DNA of 10,601 nucleotides from a virus. Its lineage: Duplodnaviria > Heunggongvirae > Uroviricota > Caudoviricetes. Shown here in pieces: positions 4,838-4,867 of this stretch. The DNA lies in IMG/VR virus record IMGVR_UViG_2695420876_000011. One strand, written 5' to 3'. Made by a program: the position numbers and the translations under genes. The notes under the pieces are model-generated. The model did no database searches, was not told the DNA's origin, and saw only the letters and a list, made by a program, of their open reading frames with translations. How positions within the stretch are numbered: position 1 is the first letter of the stretch; each line of letters opens with the position of its first letter.

Positions 4838-4867
4838 TGGTGGAGCTGGCGGGAGTTGAACCCGCGT
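4838..4867 (-). other. ssrA: tmRNA (ssrA) 3'-terminal fragment: probable phage attachment-site core (attL/attR or attP core)
   Basis: The reverse complement of 4838-4867 is GAACGCGGGTTCAACTCCCGCCAGCTCCACCA, the T-arm, acceptor 3' strand and CCA end of enterobacterial tmRNA as I recall it. The match stops after about 30 nt and the rest of ssrA is absent, which is the pattern of a duplicated integration core. Confidence 0.7.

Follow-up and report, generated by a model that had tools for sequence, protein, structure and literature searches.

A displaced 30-nt ssrA 3' fragment as the probable junction of two tandem prophages at the tmRNA gene of Escherichia coli

A 30-nt copy of the 3' end of ssrA, the tmRNA gene, stands by itself at positions 4838–4867 of a 10,601-nt stretch of DNA (the window), and it is very probably the leftover attachment (att) core between two different prophages that lie in tandem at ssrA of Escherichia coli. 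The left half of the window is the end of an Sp17-like lambdoid prophage that carries type III effector genes, and the right half is the integrase-proximal part of a PhiNP-like prophage. The core is best read as an internal junction, serving as the attR side of the Sp17-like phage and the attL side of the PhiNP-like phage. Tandem arrays at ssrA with a displaced tDNA fragment are of a known, ordinary kind; the pairing of these two partners alone has no precedent among complete genomes.

The window is the entire 10.6-kb draft contig CYAG01000065.1 of assembly GCA_001277575.1, with the intact ssrA gene and the far ends of both prophages lying outside its view. The comparison set comprised 5,426 complete E. 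coli genomes, and the array was reconstructed from two sets of relatives, one of the Sp17 type (Sakai, E110019) and one PhiNP-like (23AR1101, FDAARGOS_1287).

RESULTS

An ssrA 3' end without the rest of the gene

The plus strand at 4838–4867 reads TGGTGGAGCTGGCGGGAGTTGAACCCGCGT, which is the reverse complement of ACGCGGGTTCAACTCCCGCCAGCTCCACCA, the final 30 nt of E. coli ssrA. When aligned with the annotated ssrA genes of Sakai and FDAARGOS_1287, the 30-mer agrees at 30 of 30 positions, from A334 to A363, and in the same alignment identity ends directly upstream of A334. The original prediction had claimed an exact 30-nt copy of the T-arm, acceptor and CCA end without the remaining gene and had proposed an alignment to tmRNA as a check; the alignment to ssrA 334–363 agrees with this claim throughout. 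According to the Rfam structure line, the 30-mer spans the T-arm (5-bp stem, 7-nt loop), the 7-nt 3' acceptor strand, the discriminator and CCA. T357 is present, and the copy is wild type.

The window has a single occurrence of the 30-mer, and 200 shuffles gave no match to it with up to three mismatches permitted. The Rfam tmRNA model (RF00023) was placed at 4838–5019 on the minus strand with only its 3' end aligned; it scored 28.9 bits where the gathering threshold is 47, and ARAGORN reported no tmRNA or tRNA gene in the window. The element is therefore a displaced ssrA 3' fragment rather than a tmRNA gene. With neither a promoter nor the 5' part, it would yield no tmRNA and would serve as a recombination substrate. 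A 57-aa open reading frame that runs over the core (4723–4896) has no family match and is regarded as spurious. The features of the window are collected in Table 1.

Table 1. Features of the window, with two features of the related E110019 prophage in the last rows (L013 and L014 are our labels for compared sequences; a dot stands for no strand)
Feature	Position	Strand	Evidence
Sp17-like lambdoid prophage end, exchangeable effector locus	1–4317	.	Pfam; 99.4% to E110019, 99.1% to Sakai Sp17
Tail-fibre C-terminal domains	1–542		Pfam
NleG	646–1125		Pfam
EspW, 352 aa	1256–2314	-	name from annotation in relatives
NleG	2393–3043	-	Pfam
EspM2 (IpaB_EvcA)	3226–3816	+	Pfam
tfa remnant	about 4050–4202		
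dinI, final gene of the Sp17-like prophage	4318–4566	-	Pfam DinI, E 1.1e-18; DinI in Sakai (ECs_3483) and E110019
CCA-side arm of the Sp17-like prophage	4567–4837	.	identical or 98% to DNA beside intact ssrA in O111:H8 8234, Sakai and E110019
att core, displaced ssrA 3' fragment (T-arm, 3' acceptor strand, ACCA)	4838–4867	-	30/30 to ssrA; exact overlap of the two half-window matches
int-side arm of the PhiNP-like prophage, 83 nt before the IS	4868–4950	.	identical in 23AR1101 and FDAARGOS_1287
Degenerate IS5-family element, about 848 bp, transposase frameshifted	4951–5798	-	DDE_Tnp_1_2; pseudogene in FDAARGOS_1287 and 23AR1101
Three-gene cassette: 189 aa, 121 aa and 128-aa SecB-like	5963–7282	+	PADLOC, Pfam
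Tyrosine integrase (int), 389 aa, read towards the core	7309–8478	-	Pfam Arm-DNA-bind_2 and Phage_integrase
Excisionase (xis)	8439–8645	-	phrog_2917, E 7.7e-44
Early-left genes of the PhiNP-like prophage, small ORFs	8734–10601	-	Pfam; annotation of the 99%-identical prophages of 23AR1101 and FDAARGOS_1287
yfdR-like HD-domain gene	9269–9832	-	Pfam
yfdQ/DUF2303 gene, incomplete at contig end	from 9933	-	Pfam
E110019 Sp17-like int	L013 47365–48543		
E110019 28/30 core	L014 3046–3075		

The left half is the end of an Sp17-like prophage

Positions 1–4867 of the window match E110019 at 99.4% identity, and 104–4867 match Sakai Sp17 at 98–99% (99.1% in the genome search). The earlier description of this side as a tail fibre, effectors, a tfa remnant and dinI is borne out by Pfam and by the relatives, and in Sakai as well as E110019 the dinI end of the prophage adjoins the intact ssrA gene. 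Two putative LexA boxes, TACTGTGTTTGTATACAGTA and AACTGTACAAATAAACAGTA, were recognized by eye at 4580–4599 and 4608–4627, upstream of dinI (start at 4566, minus strand). The arm further contains a terminator-like hairpin on the minus strand (4691–4712) and a direct repeat, CTACTGTC(T/C)GG, at 4769 and 4809, which may be a candidate arm-type site for Int.

Several Rfam matches also fall into this half. A mir-19 match sits on both LexA-box palindromes and was rejected as a chance or low-scoring hit, as was a CssrB match at 3884–3988. An IS009 match at 3931–4159 on the plus strand reaches 104 bits (E 1.3e-23), under its gathering score of 117; the IS009 and CssrB matches overlie the tfa remnant that lies between the espM2 and dinI genes.

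The Sp17-like prophage of E110019 looks complete, extending over 48,393 bp from ssrA to a distal core copy that retains 28 of the 30 nucleotides. Its distal end carries the prophage's own integrase and two cargo genes, and there the 28/30 core adjoins the ypjA-side flank. In Sakai Sp17, a recognisable distal core copy was not found. This difference bears on the idea that the left side of the window is a stranded Sp17-like remnant, in which case the 30-mer would be the outer attL of one live prophage beside a fossil. Sakai Sp17 does offer a precedent for decay, being degraded to 24 kb and ridden with IS elements in addition to having no recognisable distal core; an entry in Table 1 of PMC10107115, which cites Williams 2003, gives a damaged displaced copy for Oi108 of O157:H7 EDL933, and just 4.8 kb of the left element falls within the window. 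The closer relative, E110019 at 99.4% identity, nonetheless has the complete-looking 48-kb prophage with integrase and distal core, and we consider a stranded remnant improbable. Such a remnant would in any case be a sub-case of the tandem arrangement and would leave the nature of the 30-mer unchanged.

The right half belongs to a PhiNP-like prophage

From the core onwards, positions 4838–10601 of the window match 23AR1101 and FDAARGOS_1287 at 99.2–99.3% identity, with 99.9% over 4838–8700. The matches of the left and right halves share exactly the 30-mer. In 23AR1101, the counterpart of the right half is a myovirus-tailed prophage that runs from a core fragment (record position 1110463) to the core within intact ssrA (record position 1149748); the two copies are direct repeats spaced 39,285 bp apart. 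The original prediction had called this side integrase-proximal, in agreement with the tyrosine integrase and the excisionase encoded there, both with intact reading frames. In the PDB, the integrase has Tn1549 Int and lambda Int as relatives.

The core and the integrase gene are not adjacent, the IS remnant and cargo genes taking up about 2.4 kb between them. On the plus strand, the T-arm hairpin (4849–4865) together with the T-run TTCTTTTT of the int-side arm makes a terminator-like site, and within this arm related prophages diverge a few bases past the core. The IS has imperfect inverted repeats of 35 nt (4951–4985 and 5764–5798); it lies 83 nt from the core, and its arrival may have interrupted the att arm on the integrase side of the PhiNP-like prophage.

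In the terms used by Islander, the fragment is identical to the 3' end of the target gene (30/30), and a tyrosine integrase, accompanied by the excisionase, lies beside it inside the island. An array member with its own integrase and a distal fragment is seen in the window for the PhiNP-like prophage, and for the Sp17-like one only in E110019.

The DNA next to intact ssrA in PhiNP-like lysogens was also compared. There, about 150 nt at the CCA end of the gene (L011 15600–15748, L014 3076–3230) are 94–97% identical to the DNA straight after ssrA in many E. coli (e.g. ST131), and K-12-type genomes hold an approximately 89% copy of this flank elsewhere, at an unannotated site that also has about 23 nt of the core. 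The attP of the PhiNP-like family seems to carry the ssrA 3' end plus a copy of the roughly 150-nt downstream flank. A derivation of both arms from the native flank was dropped: the local alignment of the CCA-side arm with the ~150-nt PhiNP-like flank beside ssrA scored 18, which is non-significant given a shuffle mean of 16.6 and 154 of 500 shuffles scoring as high.

An integrase and core of the PhiNP type

The integrase encoded in the window shares 90% amino acid identity with PhiNP Int over 386 residues and 68% with the integrase of the Sp17-like prophage of E110019. Experiments have mapped the attP/attB core of PhiNP to the 25-bp 3' terminus of ssrA, TGGTGGAGCTGGCGGGAGTTGAACC, and have also shown integration at ssrA in E. 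coli K-12 (Magaziner et al. 2019, PMC6456863). The same 25-bp core, TGGTGGAGCTGGCGGGAGTTGAACC, is contained in 4838–4862 of the window, on the side towards which int is transcribed. By homology and by the position of the core, int and core correspond to a predicted PhiNP-type, ssrA-specific integration module. Because CP4-57 already occupies ssrA in K-12 (PMC10107115), PhiNP lysogens of K-12 should likewise be tandem arrays, a point that we infer here and that is not stated in PMC6456863.

Exchangeable cargo between core and integrase

The three-gene cassette in front of the integrase gene is recognized mainly through its third product. The 128-aa protein matches PADLOC PD-T4-9_C (E 3.7e-35) and Pfam SecB (E 6e-6), and the 189-aa toxin candidate has a marginal match to PD-T4-9_A (E 0.007). 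The 121-aa middle protein gave no PADLOC match, and neither the toxin nor the chaperone of the cargo has sequence relatives in the PDB. The order and sizes of the genes are consistent with a toxin A, an antitoxin B and a chaperone C. PD-T4-9 is the CmdTAC toxin–antitoxin–chaperone defence system (PMC9519451, PMC11618068), and the cassette looks like a divergent CmdTAC-like system, with a toxin and an antitoxin that look to be unrecognised by current models. A promoter-like site was noted ahead of the cassette at 5880–5908.

In prophages with an approximately 95% nucleotide-identical integrase gene, the same slot is occupied by DarTG (DarT/NADAR), by an AAA ATPase together with RloB, or by STAS-like genes. 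Homology to these prophages ends a few bases after the core and returns about 33 nt inside int (4868–7342 of the window, compared with L003 9035–10511 and L015 14035–16302). On these sequence comparisons, the segment between core and int is a predicted hotspot for swap-in cargo.

The junction recurs in assemblies of one clone

At least six further assemblies, all of one clone, contain the identical junction. The contigs differ by at most one SNP in 10 kb, indicating that one clone has been sequenced several times. The junction was found base for base in GCA_001277575.1, GCA_048120845.1 (13.9-kb contig), GCA_022871305.1 (8.7 kb), GCA_001285025.1 and an IMG genome. Four contigs of 8.7–13.9 kb cross the core unbroken, which argues against both a misassembly and an attP of a single phage. 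Two Logan assemblies hold only the core and the right arm, in contigs that begin at the core, as k=31 predicts, and they give no support for the junction.

A technical explanation would be an assembly chimera, made by joining two unrelated contigs at the 30-nt repeat. The point of joining coincides exactly with a repeat found several times at the locus, and the pairing occurs in no complete genome, as would be expected of such an artefact. However, the same junction appears base for base in NCBI assemblies of different submissions as well as in the IMG genome, and 30 nt is below the k-mer or read length of most assemblers, making a chimera exceedingly unlikely.

No place covering 80% of the window was found in any of the 5,426 complete E. 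coli genomes, and none of these genomes contains this prophage pairing. In an exact-match scan, the junction was absent from genome contigs (one genome per species) and from metagenome contigs, and a scan of IMG/VR retrieved only a copy of the same contig. A further IMG/VR scan for the attP that a free PhiNP-like phage is predicted to have (flank X, core, int arm) returned no matches, and IMG/VR contigs that join ssrA to one or the other arm gave 55 and 6 matches, none of them from the window's genome.

These data also bear on the second alternative of the original prediction, which had offered either a tandem junction or the att region of a single element. In the latter case, the window would be the attP region of one recombinant phage, with late and effector genes of the Sp17-like type and integrase and early genes of the PhiNP-like type, coming from a circle, an episome or a double lysogen. 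The circular map of PhiNP indeed has the same order of tail fibre, morons, dinI, core, cargo, int and xis, lambdoid phages are mosaic, and in phage mEp460 a single short match likewise bears the annotation of both dinI and int. Phage records, however, cover at most 32% of window 3900–5900 and none crosses the core into the right arm; arms coming from one phage genome were found neither among the phage records nor among the complete E. coli genomes, where no prophage holds both. Each arm is instead 99% identical to a separate complete prophage with its own other end. Furthermore, an attP is absent from a single lysogen, a double lysogen or a mixture with circles would fork on both sides of the core although the contigs of four assemblies pass through it, and a phage with int and xis that persisted solely as an episome in every isolate of the clone is unlikely.

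One contig deserves separate mention. In a sister assembly, contig L008 begins 54 nt to the left of the core (window position 4784), a start that fits a K=85 de Bruijn fork at the right edge of the core and hints at a second type of junction in the culture. The fork could arise if the proximal phage had excised spontaneously in some cells of the culture, and the contig start is also compatible with a fork at the core of a single-phage attP. Taking both sides together, we regard the attP of a single recombinant phage as quite unlikely. Of the two earlier alternatives, the tandem junction is the one favoured, with halves belonging to two separately bounded ssrA prophages, and the single-element att region is architecturally possible but much less likely, its arms occurring together in no phage record and no complete E. 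coli genome. The second core copy or intact ssrA that the original prediction asked for at a prophage-sized distance is present in the closest relatives, with 39.3 kb and 48.4 kb from repeat to repeat.

Order of the array and a possible route to it

The fragment is oriented with its CCA end towards the dinI arm and its inner end towards the integrase arm. As the repeats are direct, the order would be ssrA, PhiNP-like prophage, core, Sp17-like prophage, further core and chromosomal flank. Followed along the direction of ssrA transcription, the array of a tandem lysogen would run from smpB through intact ssrA into the approximately 39-kb PhiNP-like prophage, which would end with xis, int, the CmdTAC-like cassette and the IS remnant before the 30-nt core is reached. 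Beyond the core would come dinI, the effectors and the tail fibres of the Sp17-like phage, then a further core copy and the ypjA-side flank. The sequence identities, the genes of both arms, the layout in the relatives and the homology of the integrases are shown directly; for this particular genome, we infer where intact ssrA lies, that the Sp17-like partner is complete, which phage came first and that excision can take place.

Such an array could have arisen by ordinary site-specific integration. The attP of each phage would carry the last 25–30 nt of ssrA, and both phages would use related tyrosine integrases. Exchange by Int within the common 25–27 nt would rebuild ssrA from the phage copy and displace the old copy to the far end of the incoming element. 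The junction would then be a hybrid site, with a left arm derived from the attP of the Sp17-like phage and a right arm from that of the PhiNP-like phage. In the most economical history, the Sp17-like phage would have been resident when the PhiNP-like phage entered the regenerated ssrA; the reverse order of arrival, with integration into the displaced copy, would give the same product. The order cannot be read from the core, because the informative positions are all identical.

The same chemistry would operate in reverse. Int and Xis acting on this core and on the core inside ssrA would excise the proximal phage, and the junction is a possible excision substrate for either neighbour. Since the fragment is wild type and T357 is present, ssrA would be intact and lie beside dinI once the proximal phage had been excised, as in Sakai. 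A more far-reaching possibility is that int and xis of the PhiNP-like phage also act on the adjacent Sp17-like prophage, which would be excised alone or co-excised in a composite circle of about 88 kb. The grounds for considering it are three identical ssrA cores and two 68%-identical integrases with the same core, and we judge it rather doubtful. If it were true, an inducible myovirus would mobilise or destabilise a type III effector locus (EspM2, EspW, NleG), and either excision would regenerate wild-type ssrA, in contrast to CP4-57.

The int-side core of the PhiNP-like family is an internal array junction in all four complete genomes that were inspected. Three of them, KSC1031, 23AR1101 and O103:H2 CEC12044, have a CP4-57-like island as the distal partner, and FDAARGOS_1287 has a P2-like remnant; in the window, the distal partner is an Sp17-like effector phage.

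FDAARGOS_1287 shows an additional rearrangement (L001 6425–20030). Its core fragment is inverted relative to intact ssrA. The ssrA-proximal end of the PhiNP-like prophage, with three hypothetical genes and pinE, has stayed beside ssrA, but P2-like tail genes now come after it, as might result from a large inversion with its ends in the tail-fibre/invertase regions of two neighbouring prophages.

DISCUSSION

Tandem arrays at tDNAs are established, with ssrA as the most enriched target (PMC4383910), and prophages that occupy the same locus in STEC and EPEC are usually read as sharing an att site (PMC8112680). The present case is a further example of multiple occupancy of ssrA in attaching-effacing E. 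coli, in which a PhiNP-type phage would be the newest, ssrA-proximal tenant. Its value is mainly for annotation, where the 30-mer serves as a reliable border that divides what would appear to be a single large prophage region into two elements. The junction would also explain how the type III secretion effector locus with EspM2, EspW and NleG comes to lie away from ssrA in this clone. Loss of the proximal phage should spare tmRNA, unlike the loss of CP4-57.

The closest single-phage counterpart is PhiNP of Citrobacter rodentium (OR565852.1). It shares with the right half an integrase of 90% amino acid identity, the adjacent excisionase and an attP core consisting of the ssrA 3' end; like the window, it has cargo between core and int and, across the core from these, a dinI-like gene, and its core copy carries one mismatch. 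In PhiNP, however, both arms come from one phage, whereas the dinI arm of the window comes from a different, lambda-like effector phage, and the PhiNP cargo is an AAA ATPase in place of the IS remnant and CmdTAC-like cassette.

The left half resembles Sp17 of O157:H7 Sakai and the cryptic prophage CP-1639 (AJ304858.2), which are lambdoid and have their dinI end next to the ssrA 3' end; Sakai Sp17 in addition has the effector set of EspM2, NleG8-2 and EspW. In these prophages, the dinI arm abuts the intact ssrA gene, while in the window it abuts a bare 30-nt fragment that is followed by another phage.

CP4-57 of K-12 is alike in residing at the ssrA 3' end and leaving a displaced copy at its distal end, but its integrase is of the P4 type. 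The displaced copy of CP4-57 lacks T357, so that excision inactivates tmRNA and trans-translation (PMC10107115). The copy in the window is wild type, and excision of the proximal phage should spare ssrA.

Among known systems, the best general match is the tDNA array, in which an intact tDNA is followed by several islands with their own integrases and by displaced 3' fragments in direct orientation. Tandem island arrays at tRNA and tmRNA genes were reportedly the subject of Williams 2003, 'Traffic at the tmRNA gene'. Arrays of at least two islands number 125 in Islander (PMC4383910). The window is the same in principle as these arrays, and the pairing of an Sp17-like with a PhiNP-like prophage alone is new among the complete E. 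coli genomes searched.
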